Assembly (NCBI GenBank): GCA_014240385.1
Contig: JAAZXA010000068.1
Coordinates: 29,090-93,089, forward strand
Source of the DNA: Methanobacteriota archaeon
GTDB taxonomy: Archaea > Thermoplasmatota > Poseidoniia > Poseidoniales > Poseidoniaceae
DNA length: 64,000 bases
Direction of reading: 5' to 3'
The notes under the pieces are model-generated. The model made no database searches. It worked only from the letters and a program-made list of their open reading frames with translations, and was not told the origin of the DNA. Positions 8,153 to 60,656 of this stretch are shown here, piece after piece. A program made the translations under genes and the position numbers. Within the stretch, counting starts at the first letter, position 1. Each line of letters opens with the position of its first letter.

Positions 8153-8162
8153 GAGCGGTTCC

Positions 8163-17191: not shown

Positions 17192-17198
17192 GAGCGGT

Positions 17199-42100: not shown

Positions 42101-42101
42101 T

Positions 42102-42545
42102 GGTATAATTTCTTCGTGGTTTTAGGCCACAGGAGGTATATGAATAGGCCCTTTTACTCTCTTTCCTTTGGATCTAGAGGCCTCAAGCTGCTACTCTTGG
42201 CCTCTTTCTCTAGAAAGAGTGTATTTTGGGTATTTCTTCATGTTCTCCACTGTATTGTGCCACAGGGGGTATATGAATAGGCCACTTGCAGTCAATTTCA
42301 AGATCGCTGAAAGGGCATGATTAGCTTCTCATGCCTTCGCTTTCAATTATTGCTTCAATATGGGTATTTCTTCATGTTCTCCACTGTATTGTGCCACAGG
42401 GGGTATATGAATAGGCCATATTTCGGTAACATCTCCAGATCTCTCCTTCGAAAGCTACTCCTGGCATGGCCGTAGGCCAAACAGGGTGAAATATGGGTAT
42501 TTCTTCATGTTCTCCACTGTATTGTGCCACAGGTGTTATTTGGCA
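42102..42545. promoter_or_regulatory. periodic array: 4 direct ~56-bp units (period ~126-134 bp), each ending in GGTATATGAATAGGCC box, immediately upstream of TFB gene
   Basis: units at 42102-42150 (degenerate), 42228-42283, 42361-42416, 42495-42533 (last lost the TATATGAA box); unique ~75-bp segments between units. Confidence 0.7.
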
Positions 42546-42563
42546 AGGCCGTTTCCGTTAACC

Positions 42564-43694
42564 ATGGCGAGTAATGACGATACGGCCAATCAGATGGGGG
42601 CGACTGCTGATTTTTCGTCAATATCGTCTGTCCTTTGTCCTGCATTCGAACAGCCGCCTGGGTGTGCCGTCTCCCTTGCCAAGCAACAAAACTTTGATTC
42701 TTTGTCAGTCGACTCTATGACTGGGAGGGCGTATTGCGGATCATGCGGCGTGGAATTCGTTGTTGACCGTTATCAGGTTAGTCATGAGCAGAAAAAGAGT
42801 GATGATGGGATAGAAACCTACGGATCTGTTCTCTCCAAGTCTGGGAAGCAACGGAATAGGGAACAATCCTTTGACCGCCTGGGCTATCTTTGTATTAGCA
42901 AGTTGGACTTATCTCAAAGTGTGTTGGCACAAGCTACCCGCTACCTGTACGATATGATGGAAGGTGGAGCCGCTAAAGGAGGTCGGGGTTTTCCCCAACT
43001 CGAAGTGGTTGCGGCTTATGTGGCAGGTAGAATGCATAATCAATCCCTTACTCTCGAACATGTTGTTAATATCCATCGAGATTGGATTACAGAAGAAGGG
43101 GAGTTCAAATCGATAAAGGCGGCATCTATGAAATCAGTTAATCGATTGCTGCAGAATATGACTAGGGAAAACATTCTGCCTTACCCCCGCCCTTCTGCAG
43201 ATGATATCATTGGTTCTAATTCGTGGTGCTTGGCTAATCTAGATGAAGTCATTATTCAGAATGCTAAGGAGTTGTCTAATTGCGGAGTCCAAGGTTCCCC
43301 CGATTCTATTGCTGCAGCATCGGTGATGGTGGCTGCGAAGAATAAGCGTGTTGTGAAACCCGGAGATGACTTATCGCGGCCACGAACACAAATGGCCGGA
43401 GAGGAAGATGGGCAGCGTTTAACGCTCGAAGTGATTGCCAAATTGTTTCCTGGCACTACTGCTAGAACTGTAAGGCGAAGAATGAAAGAGATTAGGGATG
43501 TTTTGGAACTTAGGCTACCTCTAACACGAGAGCAAGTAGAGGTTCTTGAAAATCCTGATCCCCGCAAGGTGCGTGTCCGTAATACTGTTGAGGAAGTATT
43601 CAGTCAATTGGATTCGGAATTGGAAGGAAAGATACCATTGACTTCTAAGGATGTAGCAATTCTACGAAAATTGAAAGATTCAAACAAGAGGTAA
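42564..43694 (+). CDS. tfb: transcription initiation factor TFB/TFIIB homologue
   Basis: N-terminal Cys cluster (CPAFEQPPGC...CGSCGVEF), two cyclin-like repeats (LEVVAAYVAGRMHNQSLTLEHVVNI), C-terminal BRE-recognition-helix-like TTARTVRRRMKEI; ATG 42564 (track ORF starts earlier inside repeat array). Confidence 0.65.
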   Translation: MASNDDTANQMGATADFSSISSVLCPAFEQPPGCAVSLAKQQNFDSLSVDSMTGRAYCGSCGVEFVVDRYQVSHEQKKSDDGIETYGSVLSKSGKQRNREQSFDRLGYLCISKLDLSQSVLAQATRYLYDMMEGGAAKGGRGFPQLEVVAAYVAGRMHNQSLTLEHVVNIHRDWITEEGEFKSIKAASMKSVNRLLQNMTRENILPYPRPSADDIIGSNSWCLANLDEVIIQNAKELSNCGVQGSPDSIAAASVMVAAKNKRVVKPGDDLSRPRTQMAGEEDGQRLTLEVIAKLFPGTTARTVRRRMKEIRDVLELRLPLTREQVEVLENPDPRKVRVRNTVEEVFSQLDSELEGKIPLTSKDVAILRKLKDSNKR

Positions 43695-44135
43695 TGTGAT
43701 TTCCCTTTTGGTTTTCTTGGAATCTTTTCTGTATTGCAACAGAACATAATGGATGTCTCTGCGATTGTAGCTTCCGTTTTCATCTGGTTCTGCGGACCAA
43801 CAGGCATACCTTAGTGAGCGGTTTTCTTCCTGCATTAGTTCCAACATGGTTTCAGGGCCAACGCTGTACACTTCCTTGACTTCTCTGAGAGATAATTGCT
43901 CATCTGGAACTAATCGCCAAAGTGTTCGTCTGTATTCTCCTGTTCCATCCTTTGTTCTTTCAACACCTGCTGGATCAAACCTTTCTGGGTATGATGAAAG
44001 GATCCCAGCAATTACTGATTTCCGTTCTTTACCCATTTTGTCTAGTATTCGGTCAAAAGGGAGAATTTCATCTTTGGACTCATGGAAGATTTTCTCAATC
44101 TTTGGGACAAGGCGGTTTTTTGCCTTCCTTGCCAT
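43680..44135 (-). CDS. hypothetical protein, 151 aa (possible wH regulator)
   Basis: ATG 44133-44135 preceded by GAGGGGGATGAGG SD-like purine tract; no ACCGCTC motif. Confidence 0.45.
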   Translation of the reverse strand: MARKAKNRLVPKIEKIFHESKDEILPFDRILDKMGKERKSVIAGILSSYPERFDPAGVERTKDGTGEYRRTLWRLVPDEQLSLREVKEVYSVGPETMLELMQEENRSLRYACWSAEPDENGSYNRRDIHYVLLQYRKDSKKTKREITLPLV

Positions 44136-44428
44136 CAGGCCTCATCCCCCTCGTCCTTCCTAAGTTGTGTGAGTTCTTGCACCAGCCGCCAGACTATGTC
44201 GTCCATTGTCTCGCCCCTGTTGCCGAGGCTATTCAAGATTTCATGCGTTCTTTGCTTAACATTGATGTGTTTCAACTTTGAGCCGTCTGCCGCAATGTTC
44301 CCCATGAGACCAACTGTGTGTATCTGTCGTATAAGCGACTCGGAGGGATTGGGATGGGATGTGAAAGGCTGTGATACTTGGGCAAGAGGGGAGAGAGTTT
44401 ATGCACCGTGCGCTGAAAGGCGCCCATA

Positions 44429-44635
44429 ATGAAAGCAGAAGATCCTCTAGTGCAAACCTTACTCAAGACCCTGATGGAGTTAGAAAAGGTGGATGAAAAA
44501 GACTTGAGACACATGATTGAAGTTGCTGGACAACTATGTACCCAACTCGAGCGGCCGGAGAGTATTGCGGCCTTGATGTTTCAGGTGATGGATGTTTCCA
44601 AAGCGGTTGATTCCTCGATTACTGGTTATGCCTGA
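44429..44635 (+). CDS. hypothetical protein, 68 aa
   Basis: track ORF; weak RBS; stop 34 nt before GT gene start. Confidence 0.3.
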   Translation: MKAEDPLVQTLLKTLMELEKVDEKDLRHMIEVAGQLCTQLERPESIAALMFQVMDVSKAVDSSITGYA

Positions 44636-44642
44636 ATCCTTC

Positions 44643-44655
44643 ATACGACTGAACA
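44643..44655 (+). promoter_or_regulatory. TATA-like box CATACGACTGAACA ending exactly 14 nt before ATG 44670
   Basis: member of ATAYGRCTGAACC-N14-ATG family (5 copies). Confidence 0.5.
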
Positions 44656-44669
44656 CCTTCGGCTCTCAC

Positions 44670-47111
44670 ATGAGAGTAGGTTTTCTCCTGTTAGGCAACG
44701 CCCCGTTTTACTTGACTGGGTATGGTACGCAATTGAAAATTCTAGGCGACAAATTAATTGAAGAGGGTTACCCTGTAGGTCATGTTGTTGACTTTGGATA
44801 TGCTGGACAACATATGGAATGGGAAGGGCGAACTGTTTACCCCCATGATAAGTTGCCAGGAACTCTGACTGCTGATACAATGAAATCGCACATCCTGTCT
44901 TTTCAACATAAACACGGTTTAGATCAAGTCGTTGTTTGGTCTTTGGGTGATACATGGAAATTGAGTAAGTTGAATCAAGCCATCAAGCACCCGTATTGGA
45001 TTTGCATGACTCCTGTTGATTCGGATAGGATGGATGGCGGTTCAATTACCGCTCACAATAATTCATGGTTGCAAGCCGCAATATCGAAACATGGTGTTGA
45101 AATTATGAGGGCTGCTGGATTAACTGGCATCAATTACCTCCCCCACATGGTCGGAGATTCCTTTGTGCCAATAAATCAAGAGTATGCTAGAGCCGCATGT
45201 GGTTTGCCTCAAGATCCCTTTGTCGTTGGTTTCTTTGGAGACATGAGTATGCGTAAATGCCCTCATGAGAATCTAGAGGCTTTTGCAATTTTCAAGCAGT
45301 CCGTACCGAACTCCCTCCTCTTCATCAAGACTAGTAACCATGTCCAACAGGTTCAATTCCATGAATTAATTCATAGGCTGGGTTTGCAGAATTCGGTTAT
45401 CACAATTCCCCCCTATGATTCCCTTCTAGGGCTAACGGATTATGAGATGGCACGAGCCCTCTCCAGTTTGGATGTGCTTCTTCATGTGAGTTCCCAAGAG
45501 GGTTTTGGAATCATACAAGTTGAAGCCCAAATGTGCGGAGTACCTGTTATCAACATGGATTTTGGTTCCCAAAGAGAGCTTCAAGGAAATCCCGAACTGT
45601 TGGTTCCTGTGGAACAGATGAATCGTGTTGATGGTGGAATGAAGGTTCCATTTGCGGCACCTGAGAAGATAGCGGAGAAGTTGATGTCTGTTTACAACCA
45701 TCTCAATAAAGTCAGCAGTCTTTCCGATGGTTTTATCGTCAAAAGGGCAATCGAACATGCAGAAACATACAGGGTTGATAAGGTGTGGGACGAGTATTAC
45801 AAGCCATTCCTCAAAGGGATGATTGGATCTATTGATGCGGTTTCTAGAGTTGTTATTCCCCCCCGTTCATTGAAGAAGGTGGGCATTGTTTCTACATTCG
45901 ATACTGAATGTGGAATTGCTACTTACACCCACATGCTTGCTACAAAATTGGTAGAGCAGGGAATGGAAGTTGTTGTCTTTTCGGAAACAGACGGTGAGTT
46001 TGAAGAAGTTCTTGAACATGAAGGTATTCGGCACCATCGATGTTGGAATCGAATGAATCCAAACACCAAATTATTCCGTGAACTTGTTGAGAGGGAGGGT
46101 TGCGATATTATCCACTTCCAGCACGAATGGCAGTTGTTCAAGAGTACGGGGTTGATTGAGGAACTTCGAGATGTACAAGTTAAGAAAGCCATCACATATC
46201 ATACCCCTCAGCCCGACCAAATGCGTAAATTGCTAAGGATTACTGATTCAACCGTTGATGCCCACATAACGCACTGGCCGGAGACTACCCAGTTGTTGCC
46301 AATGGTTTGTGAACATGGGATGTTGAATGGTGTCCAAACCATCAAACATGGTGTCCTTGAGCATTCACTTGTCCAGGACAAGTCTGTTCTGGGCATTCCT
46401 GAAAAGGTTCCAGTATTCTTCACCTTTGGTTTTGCTTCTTCAAGCAAGGGGTTGGATTATTTCATTGATGCGGCCATCCAAGCTTCTAAGAATCCAAATT
46501 GCCGGTACTTCGAAGTTGTAATTGCAATGTCCTATCATCCCGATTGGGATATGAGCGACTTGGCGAAGGAGATTAGAGCGAAGGCTGGTTCTGTTGATTT
46601 CATTACGCTTATTGAAGGATGGATGGATGATGATTCACTTGATGTTCATGCGGCTGCTAGTGACTACCTTGTTTTCCCCTACCGTTGGTACCAACAGATC
46701 CATAGTGCGTCTGGCGCAGTTAGACGCGTTTTGGGTCATGGTAAGCCCGTCTTGGTTACAGATGAGGGAAGGCTTCGAGATTTGACTGGAGGCGTACACG
46801 GTTGGAAGTTCGGCCAATACGATGTAGATGGCTTCGCTGCTGCTATTGTTGATGCGTCTTCATTACTTGGCAGTCCTCGGTATCAAAAGATGGCCCAAGC
46901 GGTCAAGGATTACTCTTCTTTGACCTCGTGGGATAATATTGCTGCGCAACACATTCAACTTTACGATAAGGTCTGTGGCTTGTGGTCGGTGGTTCCAGAG
47001 GGTATGTCACGAGCCCAAAGAGTTGAGATTGATTTACCATTCCCAGAATTACTTGATTCGGATGTTCAAGTGGATCGTTGGCATTTGCATAGGGGTGACG
47101 AAGAAGAATGA
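44670..47111 (+). CDS. two-domain glycosyltransferase (GT-B / GT4-like in both halves)
   Basis: EGFGIIQVEAQMCGVPVI (E-x7-E GT4 signature) in first half, SASGAVRRVLGHGKPVLVTDEG in second; 813 aa from ATG 44670. Confidence 0.6.
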   Translation: MRVGFLLLGNAPFYLTGYGTQLKILGDKLIEEGYPVGHVVDFGYAGQHMEWEGRTVYPHDKLPGTLTADTMKSHILSFQHKHGLDQVVVWSLGDTWKLSKLNQAIKHPYWICMTPVDSDRMDGGSITAHNNSWLQAAISKHGVEIMRAAGLTGINYLPHMVGDSFVPINQEYARAACGLPQDPFVVGFFGDMSMRKCPHENLEAFAIFKQSVPNSLLFIKTSNHVQQVQFHELIHRLGLQNSVITIPPYDSLLGLTDYEMARALSSLDVLLHVSSQEGFGIIQVEAQMCGVPVINMDFGSQRELQGNPELLVPVEQMNRVDGGMKVPFAAPEKIAEKLMSVYNHLNKVSSLSDGFIVKRAIEHAETYRVDKVWDEYYKPFLKGMIGSIDAVSRVVIPPRSLKKVGIVSTFDTECGIATYTHMLATKLVEQGMEVVVFSETDGEFEEVLEHEGIRHHRCWNRMNPNTKLFRELVEREGCDIIHFQHEWQLFKSTGLIEELRDVQVKKAITYHTPQPDQMRKLLRITDSTVDAHITHWPETTQLLPMVCEHGMLNGVQTIKHGVLEHSLVQDKSVLGIPEKVPVFFTFGFASSSKGLDYFIDAAIQASKNPNCRYFEVVIAMSYHPDWDMSDLAKEIRAKAGSVDFITLIEGWMDDDSLDVHAAASDYLVFPYRWYQQIHSASGAVRRVLGHGKPVLVTDEGRLRDLTGGVHGWKFGQYDVDGFAAAIVDASSLLGSPRYQKMAQAVKDYSSLTSWDNIAAQHIQLYDKVCGLWSVVPEGMSRAQRVEIDLPFPELLDSDVQVDRWHLHRGDEEE

Positions 47112-47335
47112 CTGAATGGAAGAAGGAAGATGTTGGCAAGGAAACTCCCGTTTTTATCGAGGGAGTGAAGGTGATTGATATGATTGTTGAAGTAATGTTG
47201 CCAGATGGGCAGGTTATTATTGGGCCTCAATTGGCGTGTGCTCATATTTTTGCTCGTTATTCAATGGTTCCTGCAATGGAGATGGTTAGCGAAGCTACAC
47301 AGAAAACAATTGAAAGCATGGAGGGGGATGCATGA
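47108..47335 (+). CDS. hypothetical protein, 75 aa
   Basis: ATG overlaps upstream stop (ATGA); purine-rich upstream. Confidence 0.35.
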   Translation: MTEWKKEDVGKETPVFIEGVKVIDMIVEVMLPDGQVIIGPQLACAHIFARYSMVPAMEMVSEATQKTIESMEGDA

Positions 47336-47418
47336 CGCCAGGAGTGGTATACAAGTGTGTGAAATGTGGTGTTTGGAGTATGGGTACTCACAAATGCGTT
47401 CAAGAGGAGGAAGAGTAG

Positions 47419-48177
47419 ATGTTATCCGTAATCTGTTGTACTGCCCGTCAAGAGGCAGGTATCAAAGAGATGTTGAAGAGTTTGGAAAAGCAGACGCATA
47501 CTGATTTCGAGTTTGTTTTGGTTGATAAGGCATGGGAATCTCGCAACGGGGCTTTCATCCTGATGCTGGATAATTCGTCGGTTAATTGCAAATACATCAA
47601 AGACGAATCCAAACATGGATTTGTTTCGATTGCCTCTGCTCGGAACCTAGCAGTTGAGTCCTCCGATGGAGATTGGATCGTTTCAGTTGATGATAGGACG
47701 CTGTTCTACCCCGATACCTTGGAACTACATGCGCAAGCATTTGAGGAAGGTTGGGATGGTATGGCGGGTTTTTCTGATTTCCACCACGAAGGCGTTTTTG
47801 CTGAGAAAGAACCAGACAAAGAGGATGAGAGGGGAGATAACCCCCAGTCAGGACATGGGAAATATGCATCAAGTAATTTCTTTGGCTATCACATGGGGTT
47901 CTCGAAGAAGGCTTGGGCTAAGGTCCGGGGTTTCGATGAGAACTATGATGGTGTTTACGGGTGGGAAGATTGTGATTTTGGTTTGAGGCTCGGTAATGCG
48001 GGAGCGGTTGTGAAATTGGGAACCCAATGTCGTGTGCTGCAGATTCGAGACGCTGCACATGGCGAGGTTTTCCAGAAGGATGATGCGCCACATGCAATTA
48101 CTGGAGGTCACATCAGATGGCGTAATGACCGAATGTATAGGCTCACATTAATGAACAGGGGCAGGTGCAGGTGGTAA
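47419..48177 (+). CDS. glycosyltransferase family 2-like protein
   Basis: LSVICCTARQEAGIKEMLKSLEKQTHTDFEFVLVD pattern; GAGGAGGA SD 47404-47411; 252 aa. Confidence 0.5.
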   Translation: MLSVICCTARQEAGIKEMLKSLEKQTHTDFEFVLVDKAWESRNGAFILMLDNSSVNCKYIKDESKHGFVSIASARNLAVESSDGDWIVSVDDRTLFYPDTLELHAQAFEEGWDGMAGFSDFHHEGVFAEKEPDKEDERGDNPQSGHGKYASSNFFGYHMGFSKKAWAKVRGFDENYDGVYGWEDCDFGLRLGNAGAVVKLGTQCRVLQIRDAAHGEVFQKDDAPHAITGGHIRWRNDRMYRLTLMNRGRCRW

Positions 48178-48178
48178 T

Positions 48179-48313
48179 ATGAAAACAAATGGACGCAGAT
48201 ATCGCAGATTAATGGCGGCTTGGAAGAAGAATAGAAGAGGGCGTTCGAAGCCTGTAGCTTCTAAGCGTCAAGGCCGTCCGGTAAGCAAGAAGAGAACCCC
48301 TCGGAGGAGATGA
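48179..48313 (+). CDS. extremely basic 44-aa peptide (not in ORF track)
   Basis: MKTNGRRYRRLMAAWKKNRRGRSKPVASKRQGRPVSKKRTPRRR; AGGTGG upstream; start overlaps upstream stop (TAATATG), stop overlaps next start. Confidence 0.35.
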   Translation: MKTNGRRYRRLMAAWKKNRRGRSKPVASKRQGRPVSKKRTPRRR

Positions 48314-48314
48314 A

Positions 48315-48950
48315 ATGGTTGATGGTCTTCTGCAGCATGATGAATATTCTGATGTTTGTCCAATCTGCAAGGAAATTGTCACCGAAGAAGAATGGCCTGT
48401 GCCGATTTCGAGAATGGAAGAACGGACAGGGCAGAAGTTTCCCCCTTGCGTAGTATGTGGTTCTGATGAAGACATCCATTACAATTACCTGACTATGCCT
48501 CAGAAGGATGGAAGAGGATTCAATCACAATCTTTTGCTGTGGTGCGAATCCTGCGGAAGTGGTACGCAACATGATGGGTTTGATGTATTGACAGGTAAGC
48601 CCAAGATCGCCCTGCGATTACCGAATGAGTTTTCCAATGATTCGATGGAGAAGGCGAAGGAACGGCTTGAAGCGGCTTTGGCCGCAGGTGAACAGGATGA
48701 AGAACTCGCCCAGGAGATCCAAGCAATGTTAGTCATGCGTGGTTTTTTCCGAGTCCACCATTACCCTTGCTTAGATGATGGTTGGGATGCGATGGGGCAT
48801 GGAGTCCGACCACTAGAAAGAAACGAGATTATGAAGAGGTTCTATGAATGGTCTAATGATGAGGCCATAGGTGTGGCCGAACTGTCTGACAATCCTTTGA
48901 CGAAGAATAAATCTCCTAGGACTCGAAAGCGTGGGAAGCGTTGGTGGTAA
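48315..48950 (+). CDS. Zn-finger protein, 211 aa
   Basis: GGAGGAG SD 48303-48309; CPICKEI...CVVCGSD...CESCGSG. Confidence 0.55.
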   Translation: MVDGLLQHDEYSDVCPICKEIVTEEEWPVPISRMEERTGQKFPPCVVCGSDEDIHYNYLTMPQKDGRGFNHNLLLWCESCGSGTQHDGFDVLTGKPKIALRLPNEFSNDSMEKAKERLEAALAAGEQDEELAQEIQAMLVMRGFFRVHHYPCLDDGWDAMGHGVRPLERNEIMKRFYEWSNDEAIGVAELSDNPLTKNKSPRTRKRGKRWW

Positions 48951-48960
48951 CGAACTGATT

Positions 48961-48973
48961 ATATGACTGAACC
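48961..48973 (+). promoter_or_regulatory. TATA-like box ATATGACTGAACC, 14 nt before ATG 48988
   Basis: ATAYGRCTGAACC-N14-ATG family. Confidence 0.5.
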
Positions 48974-48987
48974 ACTTGAACCAAATC

Positions 48988-49146
48988 ATGCGAGACCCAA
49001 CCTACAAAATCGCCCTAGTCTTTGAAGATGCAGAAGGAAACAATGTTACTCTGGCAACAGATGTACCTGAGAACCAAGTCGGATTGGCACATGCTTCAAT
49101 GTTGAAGCTTGCTGCTGGACTCAAAGGCAAGAGCGACGACGAGTGA
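48988..49146 (+). CDS. hypothetical protein, 52 aa (not in ORF track)
   Basis: MRDPTYKIALVFEDAEGNNVTLATDVPENQVGLAHASMLKLAAGLKGKSDDE; start defined by N14 box. Confidence 0.35.
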   Translation: MRDPTYKIALVFEDAEGNNVTLATDVPENQVGLAHASMLKLAAGLKGKSDDE

Positions 49147-49189
49147 TTAAAAGCGTAAATGCTAAGGGGCAGAGCCTCTTCGCCTGTTC

Positions 49190-49729
49190 ATGCTCAGCCA
49201 ACCGCATTCTGCTGTAAATCACATGAATTACAGTATTCTTGGTTCACATACTGTTCAAGATGCGGCCAATAATGCGAAGAATAATTTCTCTCCTTCGCAG
49301 AGATCTAGACATGCTCGAACCGCATATCAGAATAATCATCAGAATCTAATGCAACCGGCTATTGCTAACAATCCTCATCTTGCAGATGTTTTGAGAGGTT
49401 CTCAAGATCCAATGGGCGCCTCTTGGAATACTGGCGCTTTTCTCATCGCCGCAGGCGTGGGTGGGTTATTGTCGGTGGTGTCGTCGTCGAAGGACTTGAA
49501 GAGTTTTGGGAAATCGAAGAAGACACAAAGGAGAAACATTACCATTGGTACTATGATTGCTGCTTGTGGGCTGCTTGCAGTTGGATATTCGAAGAATTCT
49601 GAATTAATTCCCGCAGGTATCGGACTTCTTTCTGGCAATGTGGTTGGCAACAACTTGTGGTCTATCGGCTCCCGCGATTCTGGATTCGACTTTACGCCTT
49701 CGAAGTCCCTATTTGAGTTGGACTACTAG
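49190..49729 (+). CDS. Gly-rich membrane protein, 179 aa (alternative start 49223)
   Basis: track ORF; AACCGC 19 nt upstream of ATG 49223; TM segments. Confidence 0.45.
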   Translation: MLSQPHSAVNHMNYSILGSHTVQDAANNAKNNFSPSQRSRHARTAYQNNHQNLMQPAIANNPHLADVLRGSQDPMGASWNTGAFLIAAGVGGLLSVVSSSKDLKSFGKSKKTQRRNITIGTMIAACGLLAVGYSKNSELIPAGIGLLSGNVVGNNLWSIGSRDSGFDFTPSKSLFELDY

Positions 49730-49742
49730 ATGGGAATGGTTC

Positions 49743-49755
49743 AAACGGCTGAACC
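49743..49755 (+). promoter_or_regulatory. TATA-like box CAAACGGCTGAACC, 14 nt before ATG 49770
   Basis: ATAYGRCTGAACC-N14-ATG family. Confidence 0.5.
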
Positions 49756-49769
49756 GGCTGGCATTGTCT

Positions 49770-50195
49770 ATGTCGGCAGAAGATGACTCGCACACATTAC
49801 GCATCTTTGGGTTACTTTTCGTAAACTCATTTCTGATTGGTGCGGCAGTTGGGATCCACCAGCAGGGGCTTTGGTTCCCTGAAGAAAGTAATTGGGCTAA
49901 GATTGCAGGCCTCTATATGATGAGTGCTACATTTATTCAAATGGTTGCATTTATGATTTACAAATTGTTCTTCCAGGAGCGACTTGAAGATCAATCGTAT
50001 ATTCAAGGGCTTCATTCCTCTATGCGTCGTAGTATGAAGAAAATTAATGCGGAGACTCAACAATTCCAAGTGGGTCTCGAATTGGAAGCTAAGAGAGCCC
50101 AACAGCAGAAGCAGATGCAATTGCTACGAAATAAGGTCATGGAAGATGATGATGAGTCTGGCCTTAGCGAGAAGATGATGATTGAACTTCGGTGA
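49770..50195 (+). CDS. membrane + coiled-coil protein, 141 aa
   Basis: MSAEDDSHTLRIFGLLFVNSFLIGAAVG...; start fixed by N14 box (track ORF 49638 over-extended). Confidence 0.5.
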   Translation: MSAEDDSHTLRIFGLLFVNSFLIGAAVGIHQQGLWFPEESNWAKIAGLYMMSATFIQMVAFMIYKLFFQERLEDQSYIQGLHSSMRRSMKKINAETQQFQVGLELEAKRAQQQKQMQLLRNKVMEDDDESGLSEKMMIELR

Positions 50196-50204
50196 GGCTA
50201 CCTT

Positions 50205-50414
50205 ATGCGAGGGCTTCTTTTTCCAAGTGAATCTGCTCATCAAGCAGAGATAATGGCTGAGGCTTTTGCCAATAAATCGATATGGGACATGCGATGGTAC
50301 AAATTCAAACTTTGGTTCTACACTAGCGTAACTGCTTTCATCTTCATGTTCTTTACATCCCTTATTGAATGGTTCTTTGATTTCAGTCTTTTCAAGTGGA
50401 TGTTCGGGCTGTAG
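50205..50414 (+). CDS. small membrane protein, 69 aa
   Basis: GGTGAGG upstream; hydrophobic C-terminal half. Confidence 0.4.
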   Translation: MRGLLFPSESAHQAEIMAEAFANKSIWDMRWYKFKLWFYTSVTAFIFMFFTSLIEWFFDFSLFKWMFGL

Positions 50415-50419
50415 GTTTC

Positions 50420-50432
50420 ATACGGCTGAACC
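50420..50432 (+). promoter_or_regulatory. TATA-like box CATACGGCTGAACC, 14 nt before ATG 50447
   Basis: ATAYGRCTGAACC-N14-ATG family. Confidence 0.5.
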
Positions 50433-50446
50433 GTCTCACATTGTCC

Positions 50447-51211
50447 ATGACGCTAAGCGGATTCATTGCAATGCCTCGAAAACCGGGGAAAACAAAGATT
50501 GGGCAGATCCTCAAGAATATTGGATTCAAGGATAAGGGAGCAGCAGGAAATATGTGGGTCTTTGGTAAGACTCGGTTCCGTGTAGATGTGGTTGATTTTA
50601 GGGATGATTTGAGAGATCATGACGCTGAATGGGTTGAAGAAGTTGGATGGGATGATAATTGGGCCGTCCGTATTGCTGTCAATCATTCTAACAGAACAGA
50701 TGAAAATTACATCTTGTGGCATTCGATTCTAGTCATAGCCGCTGAGTGCTTAGGCGTTAGAGAAATTTGGTTAGATGGCGGCACAGGCATTCCACAGCAA
50801 CCGTACACACTTCGAGAGTTGTTTCCTGAATTGAAATCTGATGAAGGAGAAGACTTGATTGAAGAATCCGAAGCCGCCCCTGTTCTAGTCGACAAGGCAG
50901 AAGTCTTGGAGCTTCCAGATATTGAAACACCTGCTGAGCCTGTTTTGGTTCCATCTGAGCCTGAGCCTGAGCCTGAGCCTGAACCTGTGCCTGAGCCTCA
51001 AACAGAATCGTCCGAAGAGGATTACGATTCCTGGGGATGGGATGAGGATGAGGATGAGGATGAGGATGAGGATGAGGATGAGGACGATTCATGGAATGAG
51101 GATGAGGATGAGGATGAGGATGAGGATGAGGACGAGGATGAATCCGAAGAAGAGAATGAATCCGAAGAGAATGAATCCGAAGAAGGTGTTGATGTAATCA
51201 CTGAATGGTGA
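50447..51211 (+). CDS. acidic tandem-repeat protein, 254 aa
   Basis: (PE)n then (DE)n low-complexity runs encoded by GAGCCT and GAGGAT hexanucleotide repeats at 50953-51180. Confidence 0.55.
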   Translation: MTLSGFIAMPRKPGKTKIGQILKNIGFKDKGAAGNMWVFGKTRFRVDVVDFRDDLRDHDAEWVEEVGWDDNWAVRIAVNHSNRTDENYILWHSILVIAAECLGVREIWLDGGTGIPQQPYTLRELFPELKSDEGEDLIEESEAAPVLVDKAEVLELPDIETPAEPVLVPSEPEPEPEPEPVPEPQTESSEEDYDSWGWDEDEDEDEDEDEDEDDSWNEDEDEDEDEDEDEDESEEENESEENESEEGVDVITEW

Positions 51212-51234
51212 GTTCTTTGGTTGAAGGGGGTGCA

Positions 51235-51948
51235 ATGGCGTGGGGAGGCCTCCTTTACCTCAAGCACCTTTGGGATTCTTGGAAAAGTCACCGAATAGGA
51301 ATATATGGCCTGTGGGCGTGTGGTAAGACCACCCTGAATCGTTATTTGAATACCTCTGGGGATCTCGAAGAAGATACTGCCCGTATGACTAGCACCGCTC
51401 ACCCCTATGATAAGAAGAAGAAGCAGTATGTTCCACCAAATGCAACCCGCAAGAGAATTCATGTTTTGTCCGAAGCAAATCAGTCATTCCGTAGAACCAT
51501 TCTCTCGTCTGATATTGGAGGCCAGTCCGAATATTTCAATCTCTGGGTTCGAGATTTGGTGTTGCGTGATGTTGAAGTAATCATCTATCTGGTTGATTCA
51601 AGGGATGATCCAGATGGGCTTCAAGAGGCAACATTTCGAGACTTTACGAGAATTATTGCCGAGAGAGATTTCCGTTTTACTGAACGAAAATTGAGGAAAA
51701 AGGCCAGAAATTATCAGCCGAAGGTGGTAGCCCTTGTTGCCAATAAATCGGACCTTTGGCTCAATCCAGACGAACGGGCGTATTACGAGGGGTCTGGCAT
51801 TGGCAGGCATCCAATTTTTGATGCTTACAGGCCGCACTTGGTACGGCTACAGAGAGCCGGTATTCCTACTTTGAAGCGAAGTATTTCAGCCCTCCATGGG
51901 TATGATGTGGAGCGATTAATATGGGATTGCTTGAAGGCGAAGTCGTGA
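51235..51948 (+). CDS. Arf-like small GTPase (Ras superfamily)
   Basis: GLWACGKTTL (P-loop G1), DIGGQ (G3, Arf/Galpha-type), IIYLVDSRDD, NKSDL (G4) with ~50-aa insert between G3 and G4; GAAGGGGGTG SD before ATG 51235. Confidence 0.6.
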   Translation: MAWGGLLYLKHLWDSWKSHRIGIYGLWACGKTTLNRYLNTSGDLEEDTARMTSTAHPYDKKKKQYVPPNATRKRIHVLSEANQSFRRTILSSDIGGQSEYFNLWVRDLVLRDVEVIIYLVDSRDDPDGLQEATFRDFTRIIAERDFRFTERKLRKKARNYQPKVVALVANKSDLWLNPDERAYYEGSGIGRHPIFDAYRPHLVRLQRAGIPTLKRSISALHGYDVERLIWDCLKAKS

Positions 51949-51960
51949 TATGACTAAACC
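51948..51960 (+). promoter_or_regulatory. TATA-like box TGATATGACTAAACC, 14 nt before ATG 51975
   Basis: ATAYGRCTGAACC-N14-ATG family. Confidence 0.45.
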
Positions 51961-51974
51961 ACTTGGCAACTACC

Positions 51975-52748
51975 ATGTCGATGTTTGGCGATGAGGCTTC
52001 GAGTGGTCTGGAGGATTCTCATTTTATGTCGAATGTGAGGTTCACCTTCGATGACAATCCGGATCCATACAAACGAAGAAAGATAAATATGAAAAACGCG
52101 TATGGCGTTTTGAAACCAAAGCGTAGATGGAGGATTGGTTCCCCCGTCCATAACAATGCAGGACAATGTTGTGTTACTGGTATTGATTTGAGGGCTTTGG
52201 GTGCTGAAGCTTACAACAGGGCTTTACTTGACCCGCATACCCTGCAGCCTGTGGATGATGGTCGAACATTGATGACTGAGTTCTTTCTAGATCATTTGAC
52301 GGGCAAACCAGTTCAGTTTGCGGCTCAATCTGGAGTTACTACTGGTTTGCCGCTTCGTTCGTCTTATTGTCCAGGATTATTGCAGATTTATTGGTTGTAT
52401 ACTCAATGGAAATATGAAACCGATATGGAAGAACAGGGTAGGAATAGTTCATTCCTTAGAAGTAGAGGTATTGAATTAAAGCCTTTGAGAAGAAAGGATG
52501 TCAAAAAGCGCAATAGACCCTTGTTAGTCGATGAAATTGAGCCTTTTTTTGCTAAGGTCAAAATGCATGAAGGGCAGGGCATAACCATTGTTGAGTATTC
52601 TAATCCTGATGAAAATTCTAACTTCTTCGGAGAGATTGATTTAGTACACATAACATTGGATTTGCGGAAGATGCGAAGCGAGGAATTAAATAGGGAAAAG
52701 ACAAAGGGGGGCAACCCCTCCGATAATCAAAGCGAGGTTATACCATGA
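51975..52748 (+). CDS. hypothetical protein, 257 aa
   Basis: start set by N14 box (track uses TTG 51963). Confidence 0.5.
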   Translation: MSMFGDEASSGLEDSHFMSNVRFTFDDNPDPYKRRKINMKNAYGVLKPKRRWRIGSPVHNNAGQCCVTGIDLRALGAEAYNRALLDPHTLQPVDDGRTLMTEFFLDHLTGKPVQFAAQSGVTTGLPLRSSYCPGLLQIYWLYTQWKYETDMEEQGRNSSFLRSRGIELKPLRRKDVKKRNRPLLVDEIEPFFAKVKMHEGQGITIVEYSNPDENSNFFGEIDLVHITLDLRKMRSEELNREKTKGGNPSDNQSEVIP

Positions 52749-53449
52749 GCTTCTACAATCCAAACCCCACACCACAAAATACGAACGCTAATGTCGGTAA
52801 TCCGTTCTCTAAGGCACCTCCAGTGCCAACTGGAGCACCAATGGGTATGCAGGGTATGCAGCCAATGGGACAACAAAACCCCTATGGTATGTATCAACCA
52901 ACGCCACAGGCTTTGTGGGCTCAACTTGGTTATCAAACCGAGCCCTCTTTGGTTGAACTCATTCGAGATTTAGTTGTACAGAATTCTTTGGATTCTGCGC
53001 GATTCGCCGTTGAGGGGGGTTTCTTCGCTGATATTGCAATTATGGAGCAACTGATTGATTATCGCTTGAAGGAGTTCTTCACCAATTTCCGATTAGAAAT
53101 ACACCAAGACGCTACGCAAGAAGGTGCTATGTTCATCAAACCTGCTCCAGAGCAGCCTACGGATGAAGGAAAGAGATTGGCAACCCTCACCCAAAGTGAT
53201 TTGACTGCGAAGGTTGAGGAAATCAAGGGTGCAATTCGAGATAATCTATTGCAGACTGCGGATCAGAAAATTGAGTTGCATATCCAGGCGTCTGCTTTGG
53301 CTACGCAACAAGGATTCATGGGCTCTCTTCTAGCAGAGGACGCTAATGGGCAAAGAGGCGGCATTCTTTCTGCTACTGCAGGAGTTGCAGGAGGCATTCT
53401 AAGATCTGCTGCAGGTCTTCCACCTGCGCCAAAACCACCGGGGGCTTGA
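52745..53449 (+). CDS. protein with P/Q/M-rich N-terminus, 234 aa
   Basis: ATG overlaps upstream stop (ATGA); GMQGMQPMGQQNPYGMYQ low complexity. Confidence 0.5.
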   Translation: MSFYNPNPTPQNTNANVGNPFSKAPPVPTGAPMGMQGMQPMGQQNPYGMYQPTPQALWAQLGYQTEPSLVELIRDLVVQNSLDSARFAVEGGFFADIAIMEQLIDYRLKEFFTNFRLEIHQDATQEGAMFIKPAPEQPTDEGKRLATLTQSDLTAKVEEIKGAIRDNLLQTADQKIELHIQASALATQQGFMGSLLAEDANGQRGGILSATAGVAGGILRSAAGLPPAPKPPGA

Positions 53450-53453
53450 TTAA

Positions 53454-53753
53454 ATGAGTGTTGAAAGAGTTGATGAATTGCTAACAGAGATGGCGTCCGG
53501 TTCGAAGTCAAGAAAGAAAGAAATAGATGTTTATTCGATTATGGATGATTGGTTTCAACCTAAATCAGAATTGATGAAGCATGTGATTATTATTCAAATG
53601 ATTGCTTGTATTATCGTATCGATGTTCCTTTTGATTACTGTCGGAGATTCTCTGAGTAGTGAGGGCTTGCTCTTTGCAGTCATGGCTTTCATGTTGTTTG
53701 TTGGCGGATCCTTCCAATTTTACAATCGAATGACGGGTGGAGGGAGATACTGA
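53454..53753 (+). CDS. membrane protein, 99 aa
   Basis: two TM helices; tight coupling to upstream gene. Confidence 0.45.
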   Translation: MSVERVDELLTEMASGSKSRKKEIDVYSIMDDWFQPKSELMKHVIIIQMIACIIVSMFLLITVGDSLSSEGLLFAVMAFMLFVGGSFQFYNRMTGGGRY

Positions 53754-54017
53754 TGCCTTCGGCTAACCATCCTGCATTGTTGATTCCCAAGGTTGCACCA
53801 GTAGCACCTATGAGCCTTTCACTATACTACCTCTACAAACGACCATCAGATTGGAAGGTTGCAGTATCTACGCTGATATTTTCATCGGCCTTGTTGGTTG
53901 CAGGTCTAAGGTGAGGTTTTGATACATTGTACCCAAGTTTGCCCTGAATGTGGCAAAGTTGCATGTGTTGGGCATATGCGATGTCATTCATGCGGGTATT
54001 TTCTTCGCGTTGAAGAT

Positions 54018-54995: not shown

Positions 54996-55297
54996 AAGGA
55001 AAATAAGGGTGGTCTCGGCTCATAAACCCCACGATGGGGGAAGACTAAACCGAATGATCCCCGTAGGGCCAAGTGGACGGCAGGAGGGGCATCGGAGAGG
55101 TCGACACACGCAAATGTGCAGACTCCGATACTCCTGTCGTCCACCTGAGCATTAGAAATAAATGGCGGCGGTATATGTGATCTTCGCTGACCCCCCCCCC
55201 ATGAAAGTGAAAGTGTTGAATATGAATTGAGCCCCGGCGATACTGAGGGTATATGAACTATGCATAGTGGAAGAATTTCCTTGCGGCAGTAATGAAG

Positions 55298-55371
55298 CGG
55301 CCCCACGGGGATTTGAACCCCGGTTACTGGTTCCGCAAACCAGTGTGATATCCAAGCTACACTATGGGGCC
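55298..55371 (-). tRNA. tRNA-Arg (anticodon GCG), archaeal-type, no encoded CCA
   Basis: revcomp GGCCCCA..CTGGT-TTGCGGA-ACCAG..GGGG-TTCAAAT-CCCC-G-TGGGGCC-G; 7-nt loop TTGCGGA. Confidence 0.7.
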
Positions 55372-57563: not shown

Positions 57564-58385
57564 CTACTCTTCCTCAGTCGCTTGATTGTTTTGGAAAGGA
57601 ATGGTTATTTCAGGTTCGGCCACAAGGGTTGGATGTATGCCTTCTACTACCTCTCCATCAACATCCATCATGCCATAGATGTACAAATTCTTTTTCTCGA
57701 GAATGTTCTTGATTGTCTGTCTGTGCCAGACCACCTTTCCCTTCCTTGTTTTGATGGCTTTTGTTGCTAGTTCATTGATTATGTCGGATATTGTGTAGCC
57801 TTGAGTTTCCATATTGAAGATTATGTTTACTACGCTTGCTTCTTCTTCGTTTGGTACAAGCAAACCTTTCTTGGATCTCTTTCCTGTATCATCGATTTCA
57901 ATATTCATGTCATACCCATAGGGGGGTGTTCCAAGCCAAATTCCTTTCAACTTTGCACCTGCCATGCCCATTTTGACTCTTTCTTTGATTTCATTTCGCC
58001 TTAGTTCAGCCAATGCTGCGAATACTATGTAGAAGAAGCGGCCTTGAACCGTTGTAGTGTCCATTTGTTCAGAGATACATGCAATATGGCAGTTGTTTGT
58101 ATCAATTGTGTTTACAAATTCAATTGCGTTCATGGTGTTGCGATGAAACCGGTCTAGTTTGTAACCAACTACTGCGTCCCATTCTTCGCCCATGGTTTCC
58201 ATCATCGCACCATATCCAGGCCTGTTGTCTGTGAATCCACCTGATCCTGTATCTGAGTAGCTTCGAATGTAAGTCCAACCTTGCATTTCGATGTAGTTCT
58301 GGCAAAGCCTCAACTGTTCCTCTAGGCTGTGGCCTTTTGCTTCTTGCTTCTCGGTTGAAACTCTTGTGTAGATTATTGCTCGCAT
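57564..58385 (-). CDS. serine recombinase (resolvase/invertase family) with C-terminal extension
   Basis: N-terminal MRAIIYTRVSTEKQ catalytic-Ser motif; GGAGAGGAAG SD; 273 aa. Confidence 0.7.
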   Translation of the reverse strand: MRAIIYTRVSTEKQEAKGHSLEEQLRLCQNYIEMQGWTYIRSYSDTGSGGFTDNRPGYGAMMETMGEEWDAVVGYKLDRFHRNTMNAIEFVNTIDTNNCHIACISEQMDTTTVQGRFFYIVFAALAELRRNEIKERVKMGMAGAKLKGIWLGTPPYGYDMNIEIDDTGKRSKKGLLVPNEEEASVVNIIFNMETQGYTISDIINELATKAIKTRKGKVVWHRQTIKNILEKKNLYIYGMMDVDGEVVEGIHPTLVAEPEITIPFQNNQATEEE

Positions 58386-58703: not shown

Positions 58704-59082
58704 GGTTCGTTCACCATAACCTTGGTTAATTGTCGCTATGAAGGGTCAGTCGTATTACACCTTCGCCCTGTGAACCGAATTATCACCCGTTTAACACGCT
58801 ATTCCCCCCCACATAGGGGGTATGTTGACGATGAAGGAGTTCCTTTGCGCTCAACCCCCCCACCTTCATAGTCAAAAACGGGTATTTTTCACCTCATAAC
58901 TTCTCATTGAATCGCAAGTCCTCACATCACATCTCAATTGTAAGGTTGGGGTGGAATGAACCTCATGTGGTTCTGCGCTTCTAACCTTCGTTCACAGGCA
59001 ATTCCAATTCCTATCTACACATTAGGGGTGAATTACCTACTTCGTGCAACAAGGGATCTAGATGAAACAATAGGAAACAAGG

Positions 59083-59156
59083 CGGGTCATGCAGGGTTCG
59101 AACCTGCGGCCTACTGGTTAAGAGCCAGTCGCTCTACCTGACTAAGCTAATGACCC
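59083..59156 (-). tRNA. tRNA-Lys (anticodon CTT), archaeal-type
   Basis: revcomp GGGTCAT-TA-GCTT-AGTCAGGTA-GAGC-G-ACTGG-CTCTTAA-CCAGT-AGGCC-GCAGG-TTCGAAC-CCTGC-ATGACCC-G(CC). Confidence 0.75.
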
Positions 59157-60026: not shown

Positions 60027-60656
60027 CTAGAATCCATACGGTTGCCCTAGTAGCCCTCTCGCATTACTGTGTCCGTCTAGGTTAGTGTATCTTCGTCTCG
60101 ATATCTCAACGAATTTCAAGAATATTGTTCCTGTTGTCTGGAGGTTTTGAACCTTCAAACGGATTCTATGCCTGTATGGCCTAAGACCTCGGAACATTGC
60201 TACTTTGAGTGTGGCTGTATCTTTCTTCAAGAACCAATTTCCATACTGCTCAGGCATTCCTAAATCAGATACATCTTCAAGGATGATTCCTTGGTATGAT
60301 GATGATGATGTCGTGTCGTAATGGCTTTCCAATCCGCCTTGAGCGAATCCGTCTAATTGTAAGAAGACTGCGAGTTTCTCAGGGTTTGCAGGGGTGCTTC
60401 CGTCTGGAAGGTCGCCTGCATCTGCTGTAGCTTGAATAATCACATAGTTCAATTCCCCGGATTCTCTGTCATCGAGAATTGTTAGGGTTTCGCCAGCCGC
60501 TATTTCGATTTTGTTTCTGCGGATGGTGATGTCTCGAAGATCTTGTTGGTCTGCTCTGCCGCCATCCATACCTGCCATCGGATCTATGATTAGAGGTATT
60601 TCCATTGGCGGTGCTGAGTCAATTATATCGCTAATTCCATCTGGTTCGTGTTCCAT
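60027..60656 (-). CDS. hypothetical structural-module protein, 209 aa
   Basis: track ORF; start coupled to stop of upstream large gene. Confidence 0.5.
   Translation of the reverse strand: MEHEPDGISDIIDSAPPMEIPLIIDPMAGMDGGRADQQDLRDITIRRNKIEIAAGETLTILDDRESGELNYVIIQATADAGDLPDGSTPANPEKLAVFLQLDGFAQGGLESHYDTTSSSSYQGIILEDVSDLGMPEQYGNWFLKKDTATLKVAMFRGLRPYRHRIRLKVQNLQTTGTIFLKFVEISRRRYTNLDGHSNARGLLGQPYGF

Follow-up and report, generated by a model that had tools for sequence, protein, structure and literature searches.

An orphan family of Arf/Sar-related small GTPases in a conserved gene cassette of probable archaeal tailed viruses

Arf/Sar-type small GTPases are regarded as hallmarks of eukaryotes and of Asgard archaea and, to our knowledge, virus-encoded members are known only from the giant viruses of eukaryotes. 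Here we describe a virus-borne Sar1/Arf-like GTPase encoded in a 64,000-nucleotide stretch of contig JAAZXA010000068.1 (assembly GCA_014240385.1, positions 29,090 to 93,089; the whole stretch is called the window below). The gene was picked out by an earlier reading made from the letters alone (the sequence-only reading), which took it for an Arf-like GTPase borne by a virus. The window protein belongs to a virus-specific family of Arf/Sar-related GTPases that is new, as is its conserved gene context: an orphan deep branch is fixed in a five-gene membrane cassette in four divergent groups of abundant oceanic tailed viruses that apparently infect archaea.

In Sar1 and Arf an N-terminal helix inserts in the membrane on GTP binding, and the Arf signature residues are the Asp of GLDxxGKTT, the aromatic residue of wDxGGQ and the residues of GGQxxxRxxW. 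In phages such as P2 and lambda the lysis cassette lies next to the terminase gene or separates the head genes from the tail genes. The defining feature of the Arf family has been described as an amphipathic helix released to membranes by a GTP-driven interswitch toggle, and structure 8OUN is that of GerdArfR1, an ArfR protein of Asgard archaea (bioRxiv 10.1101/2024.02.28.582541). An Asgard genome has been reported to encode Arf GTPases in a mobile-element-like region (PMC11529989). In Haloferax volcanii the small GTPase ArvA (OapA), which is widespread in GTDB archaea, drives vesicle formation (PMC10927574). Among viruses, the magroviruses of Marine Group II archaea have chaperonins, genomes of ~100 kb and halovirus-like structural genes, and a magrovirus "group D" was described as having a thermosome and a resolvase, with no closed genome (PMC5434244). 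The egress machinery of tailed archaeal viruses has been called completely uncharacterized (2024 review, PMC10791045). Our search of the magrovirus and Poseidoniales-virus literature found no mention of a GTPase, and that of the literature on small GTPases in archaeal viruses found only the host ArvA and the Arf genes of the Asgard mobile-like region.

The GTPase and its nearest relatives

The sequence-only reading had placed the open reading frame (ORF) at 51235-51948. The gene is real and its end stands, but position 51235 is an internal Met, Met11 of a 247-residue ORF. The ATG at 51205 is the likelier start because homologs carry 8-13 residues N-terminal to a conserved A-[YW]-G-G in the family alignment and because this ATG overlaps the stop codon of the preceding gene (ATGGTGA). 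On a near-identical ENA scaffold the public gene call begins at the Met11 equivalent and gives a 237-residue product. An exact sequence look-up of the 247-residue product gave no match, probably since public gene calls begin at Met11.

Five G motifs (GLWACGKT, T64, DIGGQ, NKSD and SAL) occur in order and are invariant or nearly so across the 27 sequences of the close-family alignment, which comprises the window protein and 26 homologs. The invariant residues are G40, K41, T42, T43, T64, H66, D103, G105, G106, W114, N180, K181, D183, S228 and A229 and, judged from the alignment, motif conservation is far above chance. The motifs quoted in the sequence-only reading (GLWACGKTT, DIGGQ, VEVIIYLVDSRD and NKSD) were each found where it had put them, and two more were seen, the G5 motif SAL at residues 228-230 and the switch I motif T64-A-H66-P. 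The ~50-residue insert that it described between G3 and G4 was not borne out. That distance is 77 residues versus 59 in ARF1, and the surplus of ~18 residues includes the basic helix RKLRKKARN. Relative to ARF1, the spacings are longer by 5 residues from GKT to the switch I Thr, by 20 from that Thr to DxxG, by 18 from DxxG to NKxD and by 15 from NKxD to G5. The extra length of the protein is spread over four places, including a longer N-terminus.

The AlphaFold2 (AF2) model (pLDDT 80) has a small-GTPase fold, in keeping with the G domain of six beta strands and five helices. By its motifs and predicted fold the protein is a small GTPase (Ras superfamily, TRAFAC), and a functional GTP-binding switch is the best explanation of the conserved motifs. 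The model also has a predicted helix at residues 4-26 (23 residues, conserved), in which A12, G14, W23 and W26 are invariant in the family alignment. The sequence-only reading had proposed looking for an N-terminal amphipathic helix; a hydrophobic helix is indeed present and is weakly amphipathic (moment ~0.27). Its mean hydrophobicity is 0.4-0.55 and its hydrophobic moment 0.25-0.29, the moment of ARF1 being 0.27. No 19-residue segment of the window protein reaches a Kyte-Doolittle value of 1.6 and hence none is of transmembrane (TM) grade. The distant family members P0091 and P0092 have a genuine N-terminal TM helix in place of the hydrophobic helix.

The family has a clear affinity for Arf and Sar profiles. 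The top Pfam match of the window protein was Arf (E=1.6e-5, 24.9 bits against a gathering cut-off of 22.3, model positions 5-111 of 174), and this model matched 26 of the 27 close-family members at E<=0.1, whereas Ras, Roc and SRPRB gave no Pfam match at that level. When a profile built from the family alignment extended with distant members (A7) was compared with the PDB, every GTPase among the best 60 matches was an Arf, Arl, Sar1, SRbeta or Asgard ArfR protein, the remaining matches being P-loop artefacts. These matches included GerdArfR1 (8oun, 3e-9), Arl3 (2e-7), Sar1 (6e-6), SRbeta (4e-5) and Arf1 (1e-4) as well as Arl8, Arl1 and Arl5. Scored with the hidden Markov model (HMM) of this extended profile, reference sequences ranked Arl8B (31.8 bits), Sar1A (27.2), Arf1 (25.2), HRas (17.4), RagA (14.4) and MglA (11.3), with Ran, Rac and Rab each below 7 bits. 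Foldseek returned 761 PDB matches to the AF2 model at E<=1e-3, the top 50 being small and other TRAFAC GTPases. Target-normalized TM scores were 0.61-0.75 for Arf/Arl proteins (highest for Arl8 and Arl1, 0.71-0.75) versus 0.56-0.62 for Ras, Rho, Rab and Ran. The Arf-like identity proposed by the sequence-only reading thus holds in the broad sense of Arf, the best and only consistent family match (26 of 27 in Pfam and the PDB best 60).

At the motif level the family looks closer to Sar1 than to Arf. The family consensus of G3 is DLGGH, switch I is an invariant T-x-H(-P) (T-L-H-P in Sar1), a Trp stands at +7, the P-loop ends in GKTTL, G4 is NKxD and there is an N-terminal hydrophobic helix without myristoylation. 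The DIGGQ that the sequence-only reading called Arf/Galpha-type is present in the window protein but is the minority state: the switch II catalytic residue is His (DxGGH, mostly the DLGGH of Sar1, and with a Sar1-like switch I) in 16 of 27 sequences and Gln in 11 of 27. The differences from Sar1 are a local identity of only ~29% over 87 aligned columns, ~66 extra residues in four insertions, the Gln rather than His of the window protein, replacement of the P-loop Asp by Trp or another residue, and a viral gene lying in an operon with TM proteins. No Sec12 or Sec23/24 Pfam domain was found among the 118 window ORFs.

Arf and Arl proteins, including Arl8 and Asgard ArfR (GerdArfR1 8OUN and HodArfR1 8OUK), provide the best Pfam, PDB-profile and Foldseek matches, and the window protein shares with them DIGGQ, the VDSxD beta4 motif and a helix N-terminal to the G domain. 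In contrast to them, the family lacks the Asp of GLDxxGKT, the Trp of WDxGGQ, the switch II Arg and the G2 myristoylation site (of the Arf signature residues GKTT and W114 alone are kept), the Pfam match covers just 5-111 of 174 positions, and the interswitch of the window protein is ~20 residues longer than that of Arf. Identity to any Arf is <=30% (hhalign). SRbeta resembles the family in the His found at the catalytic position in most members, in the true TM anchor of some distant members, in Pfam SRPRB matches of 2 of 30 members and in the SRbeta structures among the PDB profile matches. The window protein itself departs from SRbeta in having Gln, no TM-grade helix and a G3 of DxGG rather than DxPG, and no SRalpha or SRX (longin-like) partner was detected in the window Pfam scan or in a structure search with the protein encoded next to the GTPase (partner 1, below).

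The statement of the sequence-only reading that the protein is not of the MglA type agrees with our results. MglA, like the family, is a prokaryotic-world Ras-like GTPase with a GKTT P-loop, but it scored 11 bits versus 25-32 for Arf, Sar1 and Arl8 (hhalign probability 57%), was absent from the PDB best 60 and has TxPGQ where the family has DxGG at G3; no window ORF has a Roadblock/LC7 (MglB) domain. The phylogeny proposed as a check by the sequence-only reading was run as a crude bootstrapped neighbor-joining (NJ) tree with reference sequences. The viral family was monophyletic (90%), as was the Arf/Sar/Arl8 group (94%), and a specific grouping of the family with Sar1 received 1%. The family stood on its own deep branch, not nested within Arf, and support for its sister group was split among the Arf group (32%), MglA (24%) and RagA (21%). 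We read these comparisons as placing the family on a deep lineage of its own, with Arf, Sar and SRbeta as the nearest relatives that can be detected; it is neither nested in Arf nor MglA-like.

A virus-restricted family and its conserved gene cassette

Relatives were sought among 5.8 billion proteins, and a separate HMM search was exhaustive over 1.84 billion cluster representatives. The 26 full-length homologs (45-86% identity) were all unannotated metagenomic proteins from contigs of up to ~130 kb. The HMM recovered merely 80 proteins at E<=1e-3 among the representatives, many of them fragments, and hence the family is small and isolated. Distant full-length members retain G1, G3 and G4, with G3 variants DIGGQ, DIGGH, DLGGA, DVPGQ and DYGGD. 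The family is restricted to virus-sized contigs. All contigs inspected were of 95-130 kb or shorter and none exceeded 0.2 Mb, and the 13 IMG/VR loci with GTPase relatives were likewise all on virus-sized contigs. No member was found in GTDB (one genome per species), and no close cellular relative was found there or among the 80 members. The INPHARED phage collection contained no relative of the window GTPase or of a 223-residue relative, and PHROGs, NCBIfam and PADLOC gave no match for the GTPase or its cassette neighbors (in PADLOC, the GTPase and nine neighbors). The family is virus-restricted and previously undescribed.

The window has 118 short, densely packed genes (89% coding), most of them without a family. 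Those recognizable include DNA methyltransferases, two PAPS-reductase-like proteins, a serine recombinase and glycosyltransferases. A 127.5-kb contig syntenic with the window encodes a terminase-like ATPase and a Cpn60/TCP1 chaperonin. In the group whose GTPases are 33% identical, the gene of a T4-type large terminase lies 8 kb downstream of that of the GTPase. In the ~97-kb contig BCSF01000010.1 the GTPase gene is surrounded by those of a DNA ligase, a prohead protease, an SU10/HK97-type major capsid protein (MCP) and a tail tube protein. The MCP of that contig matched only archaeal tailed viruses in INPHARED, namely Haloarcula viruses HVTV-1, HCTV-1 and HCTV-5 and viruses of Methanomassiliicoccales and Methanofastidiosa; a TerL-like fragment had no relative in the collection. 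In the fourth group (a 96.6-kb Tara contig) a chaperonin is encoded three genes upstream. These genes bear out the claim of the sequence-only reading that the GTPase is virus-borne: the syntenic relatives carry a terminase, and distant cassette-bearing ones also carry the MCP, prohead protease and tail genes.

Archaea characteristically have short, protein-spliced introns at non-canonical tRNA positions and read CGY codons with a G34 Arg tRNA. Three tRNAs are encoded in the window, Gln(CTG), Arg(GCG) and Lys(CTT), and the intron at 32/33 of the tRNA-Gln indicates that the host has a splicing endonuclease of the archaeal type. The plus-strand block that holds the GTPase gene opens with the gene of a TFB/TFIIB homolog (profile E=1e-10 to 1e-9 versus TFIIB/TFB cores) with four invariant Zn-ribbon-like Cys residues and both cyclin-fold repeats. 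The homolog is conserved in related contigs and may serve to redirect the RNA polymerase of the host toward one class of viral genes. An archaeal tailed virus is the best reading, because of the TFB homolog, the tRNA traits, the terminase and chaperonin, and the halovirus-like capsid protein of relatives. The window thus probably derives from a ~128-kb marine tailed virus infecting archaea, and the virus looks magrovirus-like, which would imply marine Poseidoniales-type hosts. Caudoviricetes hallmarks together with the magrovirus traits exclude a eukaryotic host and leave an Asgard host unsupported. The hint of an Asgard host in the sequence-only reading finds no support in these traits or in the deep branch without close cellular relatives. 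We also considered a eukaryotic giant-virus origin, given the TFIIB match and a gene-start motif like that of EhV-86. It was rejected because relatives have terminase, HK97-type MCP and prohead protease genes, the spacers are operon-like (7-10 nt) and the tRNAs are of the archaeal type.

Giant eukaryotic viruses likewise encode Ras-superfamily GTPases (the mimivirus Rab, and Ran and Ras of pitho- and klosneuviruses), and in BFVD the sole viral structural neighbors were giant-virus Rab, Ran and Ras proteins; the mimivirus Rab (5xc5) was also among the PDB Foldseek matches. However, those are recent captures of recognizable eukaryotic Rab, Ran and Ras proteins, whereas the window family is an orphan lineage in a tailed virus of prokaryotic type.

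The cassette is conserved across four divergent virus groups in the order 2-TM protein, small TM protein, GTPase, partner 1 and partner 2, and the GTPases of these groups are just 31-50% identical. Sizes across the groups are 141-202 residues for the 2-TM protein with its long charged C-terminal tail, 62-82 for the small protein, 224-338 for partner 1 and 205-260 for partner 2 with its Q/P/G/M-rich ends. BLAST or HMM comparison showed the 2-TM protein, which lies upstream of the GTPase, and partner 1 to be homologous across the close, mid and 33%-identity groups; partner 1 was recognized in this way in locus L027 as well (related loci are given L numbers). The remaining cassette slots of L027 and L030 were matched by position, size and composition alone: in L027 a similar 146-residue 2-TM protein, an unannotated TM ORF in the gap, read as ~73 residues, in the small-TM slot, and an analogous protein in the partner 2 slot. 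In the window, start and stop codons overlap within the run, and six predicted small TM proteins surround the GTPase. The protein with an acidic tail and the TM genes at 49190-49729, 53454-53753 and 53753-53914 are added in closer groups, and the upstream glycosyltransferase and TFB genes are also common to the closer groups only.

In 14 of the 15 related loci with gene context, the gene of partner 1 is the next one downstream of that of the GTPase, and homology was shown in 12 distinct loci. Arg35 of partner 1 is invariant. Its AF2 model (pLDDT 79, residues 20-165 mostly >85) had no fold neighbor in the PDB (best Foldseek E=0.23, TM score <0.2) and its sequence profile no match there. It may be a new fold, to judge from the model. 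A J-domain-like profile match at E=0.15 was rejected as noise. Partner 2 has an N-terminus rich in Gln, Pro, Met and Gly, a helical core, and a C-terminus with a Gly-rich hydrophobic segment followed by a Pro-rich end; it gave no PDB profile match. Neither partner matched Pfam, PHROGs, NCBIfam, PADLOC or PDB profiles.

A close cellular parallel is ArvA/OapA, an archaeal-world small GTPase that likewise has Arf as its closest Pfam family, an N-terminal amphipathic helix, an operon with two conserved partner genes and a part in membrane budding (PMC10927574). However, ArvA is encoded on chromosomes and occurs widely among GTDB archaea, where no member of the viral family was found; we set the two apart by description and gene context. 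Reading the locus as an ArvABC operon was rejected because no window ORF has the domain of ArvB (DUF2073) or ArvC (DUF2072).

Possible roles of the cassette

Our leading reading, which we hold tentatively and at somewhat less than even confidence, is that the cassette could be a GTP-switched device for membrane remodeling or egress. The GTP-bound protein would attach to the host cytoplasmic membrane via its hydrophobic N-terminal helix, as do Sar1 and Arf, and would act there with the co-conserved small membrane proteins, the holin-like 2-TM protein with its charged tail among them, and with the two soluble partners encoded downstream. The cassette would then deform or breach the membrane, resulting in virus release or other membrane remodeling, and timing or recycling would come from hydrolysis of GTP at the catalytic residue, Gln or His. 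GTP-dependent attachment and remodeling are proposed by analogy with helix insertion by Sar1 and Arf and vesicle formation by ArvA. An egress role is favored by the holin-like neighbor and by the head/tail or terminase-side position, as in phage lysis cassettes. Membrane binding, partner interaction, late expression and a role in egress are inferred, whereas the G-domain identity, the affinity for Arf and Sar profiles, the restriction to virus-sized contigs and the conserved cassette are results. Manipulation of the host membrane, as the sequence-only reading suggested, is a reasonable hypothesis, whereas nothing in the analysis points to the cytoskeleton, which it had also named.

The parallel with phage lysis cassettes (holin, antiholin and spanin, as in P2 and lambda) extends to a compact run of small TM proteins, one of them a 2-TM protein with a charged C-terminal tail, and to the location by head/tail genes or the terminase. 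The cassette differs from them in having no endolysin and no similarity to any PHROG lysis family, and we know of no report of a GTPase as a component of a lysis cassette. The cassette is a concrete, testable candidate for exit from, or remodeling of, murein-free cells by tailed archaeal viruses.

Several points weigh against this proposal. The Arf signatures are replaced, with Trp37 for the P-loop Asp, Ser or Thr for the Trp before DxGG, and Phe111 for the switch II Arg. The moment of the N-terminal helix (0.25-0.29) is merely moderate beside the 0.45-0.51 of Sar1 and Arl8, and support for the NJ sister of the viral family is split among the Arf group (32%), MglA (24%) and RagA (21%). The partners have no recognizable fold or family, and hence a role for them as GTPase-activating protein, guanine nucleotide exchange factor or effector is pure conjecture. 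There is no lytic enzyme near the cassette. The host is assigned indirectly: when GTDB genomes were scanned with the GTPase family and, separately, with the syntenic contig's chaperonin fragment, neither scan gave a confirmed match or a host. Finally, a place within the morphogenesis module would suit a role in assembly just as well.

In such a role, which we consider unlikely on balance, the GTPase and its two partners would serve, in a GTP-dependent manner, as chaperone, scaffold or checkpoint while heads are completed, heads and tails joined or tails assembled, and the TM proteins would be unrelated neighbors or membrane assembly sites. The cassette does lie among morphogenesis genes in three loci, being between the MCP/prohead protease genes and the tail tube gene in L027, beside the terminase (between the gene of a 2957-residue protein and portal- and terminase-sized genes) in L010, and directly after the chaperonin gene in L030. 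However, no tailed virus is known to us that uses a Ras-superfamily GTPase in assembly, BFVD holds no such phage protein, and the conserved hydrophobic N-terminal helix and adjacent TM proteins favor action at a membrane.

Somewhat less likely still is an SRbeta-like device, in which the GTPase would dock or insert the viral membrane proteins and, together with the GT4 and GT2 glycosyltransferases, could also alter the host envelope, for example in superinfection exclusion. Two members match Pfam SRPRB at 7.7e-7, one member was named SRbeta by JGI, SRbeta structures are in the PDB list, distant members have a true TM anchor, and the GT4 and GT2 genes are in the same plus-strand block as the GTPase gene. 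However, the distant groups keep the GTPase cassette without the glycosyltransferases, and an SRX/longin-like partner was not detected.

It is improbable that the cassette is a defense, counter-defense or host-takeover module whose GTPase senses or blocks a host process such as an ArvA-type vesicle pathway. Accessory cassettes of this kind are common in viruses and there is weak Pfam similarity to DO-GTPase2 and to STAND/KAP NTPases, but PADLOC matched no cassette protein, and the fixed core or morphogenetic place of the cassette across very divergent viruses is unlike that of accessory defense islands. A recent capture of a eukaryotic or Asgard Arf from the host, which would mark such a host and manipulate its cytoskeleton or membrane traffic, is very improbable despite the Asgard ArfR that is the best PDB profile match and the Arf genes of a mobile-element-like Asgard region (PMC11529989), given the <=30% identity to any Arf, the 80 members without a cellular bridge and with none in GTDB, the monophyletic and deep position of the family in the NJ tree, and the Caudoviricetes hallmarks and magrovirus traits of the virus.

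Returning to the membrane-remodeling or egress proposal, a bolder version of it combines two claims. The cassette would be the long-sought egress machine of tailed archaeal viruses, performing GTP-timed scission or perforation like a miniature eukaryotic coat-initiation module, and its GTPase would belong to an ancient viral Arf/Sar/SRbeta lineage that predates or parallels the Asgard and eukaryotic one. We regard this combination as unlikely. Whatever its role, the family adds a viral branch to the debate on the origin of membrane-trafficking GTPases.

Feature coordinates and other observations

Coordinates of the features of the GTPase, the cassette and the other genes discussed are collected in Table 1.

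Table 1 Features of the window (positions counted from its first nucleotide)
Feature	Position	Strand	Evidence or remarks
Sar1/Arf-like small GTPase, 247 aa	51205..51948	+	ORF, Pfam Arf E=1.6e-5, 26 homologs, AF2 fold
N-terminal hydrophobic, weakly amphipathic helix SLVEGGAMAWGGLLYLKHLWDSW, residues 4-26	51214..51282	+	AF2 model, hydrophobicity, alignment
G1/P-loop GLWACGKTT, residues 35-43	51307..51333	+	motif, alignment
G2/switch I T64-A-H66-P	51394..51405	+	T64, H66 invariant; hhalign onto Sar1 PTLHPT
G3/switch II DIGGQ, residues 103-107	51511..51525	+	motif, alignment
Invariant W114, +7 from catalytic position	51544-51546	+	alignment
Motif VEVIIYLVDSRD, residues 123-134		+	motif check
Family-specific basic insert helix RKLRKKARN, residues 161-169, alpha3/beta5	51685..51711	+	AF2 model; gap versus Arl8B, ARF1 (hhalign)
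G4 NKSD, residues 180-183, guanine specificity	51742..51753	+	N180, K181, D183 invariant
G5 SAL, residues 228-230	51886..51894	+	S228, A229, L230 invariant in close family
TFB/TFIIB homolog, first gene of the + strand block holding the GTPase	42507..43694	+	profile versus TFIIB/TFB cores
GT4-family glycosyltransferase (Glycos_transf_1 + Glyco_transf_4), 839 aa	44592-47111	+	same block, upstream of GTPase
GT2 glycosyltransferase, after a 75-aa ORF	47419-48177	+	same block
179-aa protein, at least 1 predicted TM segment, first of the tightly packed run	49190..49729	+	equal-sized gene at same place in L001, L003
Holin-like 2-TM protein, 141 aa from Met45 of ORF 49638-50195, long charged C-terminal tail	49770..50195	+	TM prediction, synteny
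Small single-TM protein, 69 aa, predicted TM 36-54	50205..50414	+	conserved in L001, L006-L008
254-aa protein, conserved ~150-aa N-terminal domain, (PE)n/(DE)n acidic tail	50447..51211	+	stop overlaps GTPase start; closer groups only
Partner 1, 257 aa, alternative TTG start 51963	51975..52748	+	synteny, alignments A5, A8
Partner 2, 234 aa, start overlaps partner 1 stop	52745..53449	+	synteny, alignment A6
Small 2-TM protein, 99 aa, predicted TM 44-62 and 71-89, downstream of partner 2	53454..53753	+	conserved in L001, L004-L008, L015
53-aa protein, predicted C-terminal TM segment, last gene of + strand block	53753..53914	+	ORF, TM prediction
tRNA-Gln(CTG), 57-nt intron at non-canonical 32/33 of anticodon loop, CCA encoded	41038-41168	-	
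tRNA-Arg(GCG) and tRNA-Lys(CTT), both without encoded CCA	55297-55371 and 59081-59156	-	
Serine recombinase/resolvase	57564-58385	-	Pfam Resolvase 2.9e-35; phrog_95 integrase
951-aa protein, repeated GGSGYTxxPTVxxxGG units	60656-63511	-	weak PHROG matches: virion structural, baseplate, head-closure
Two PAPS-reductase-like proteins and several DNA methyltransferases	2909-3856, 15920-17215, 7247-8209	-	phrog_424, Pfam

A gene-start motif was seen outside the GTPase block. The 10-mer ACCGCTCATG (ACCGCTC, then ATG) occurs 82 times on the minus strand of the window and not once on the plus strand. Its sites span 159-41270 with outliers at 43822 and 48008, and in the minus-strand block at 1-41 kb most genes have it directly against their start codon. 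At these sites the previous stop codon is usually 0-5 nt upstream and the sequence past the ATG is A-rich; no Shine-Dalgarno-like or TATA-like signal was found at these gene starts. The syntenic 127.5-kb IMG/VR contig has 43 copies of the 10-mer in a 19-kb sample, and two more IMG/VR contigs contain it as well. Possible functions are that of a re-initiation element, of a site where RNA is processed to leaderless mRNAs, or of an initiator. That the plus-strand GTPase block lacks it suggests a different expression class for that block.

Base composition changes with coding strand. The AT skew is ~-0.25 and the GC skew slightly negative over the minus-strand block at 1-42000, the GC skew is +0.1 to +0.2 over the plus-strand block at 42000-54000, and the coding strand changes near 42 kb and again near 54 kb.

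Among the minus-strand genes, the serine recombinase is at the same place in all closer relatives; a resolvase and a thermosome were likewise noted in the published magrovirus group D. The 951-residue protein is conserved at 46-51% identity in the 127.5-kb relative; as a single query it found no match in IMG/VR, the relative being found only with a two-sequence alignment. It is probably a virion surface or fiber protein. The PAPS-reductase-like pair matched phrog_424 (E=5e-38 and 3.5e-24), and the methyltransferase matches were N6_N4_Mtase in two ORFs and Dam in one. Together these genes suggest that the virus modifies DNA extensively.

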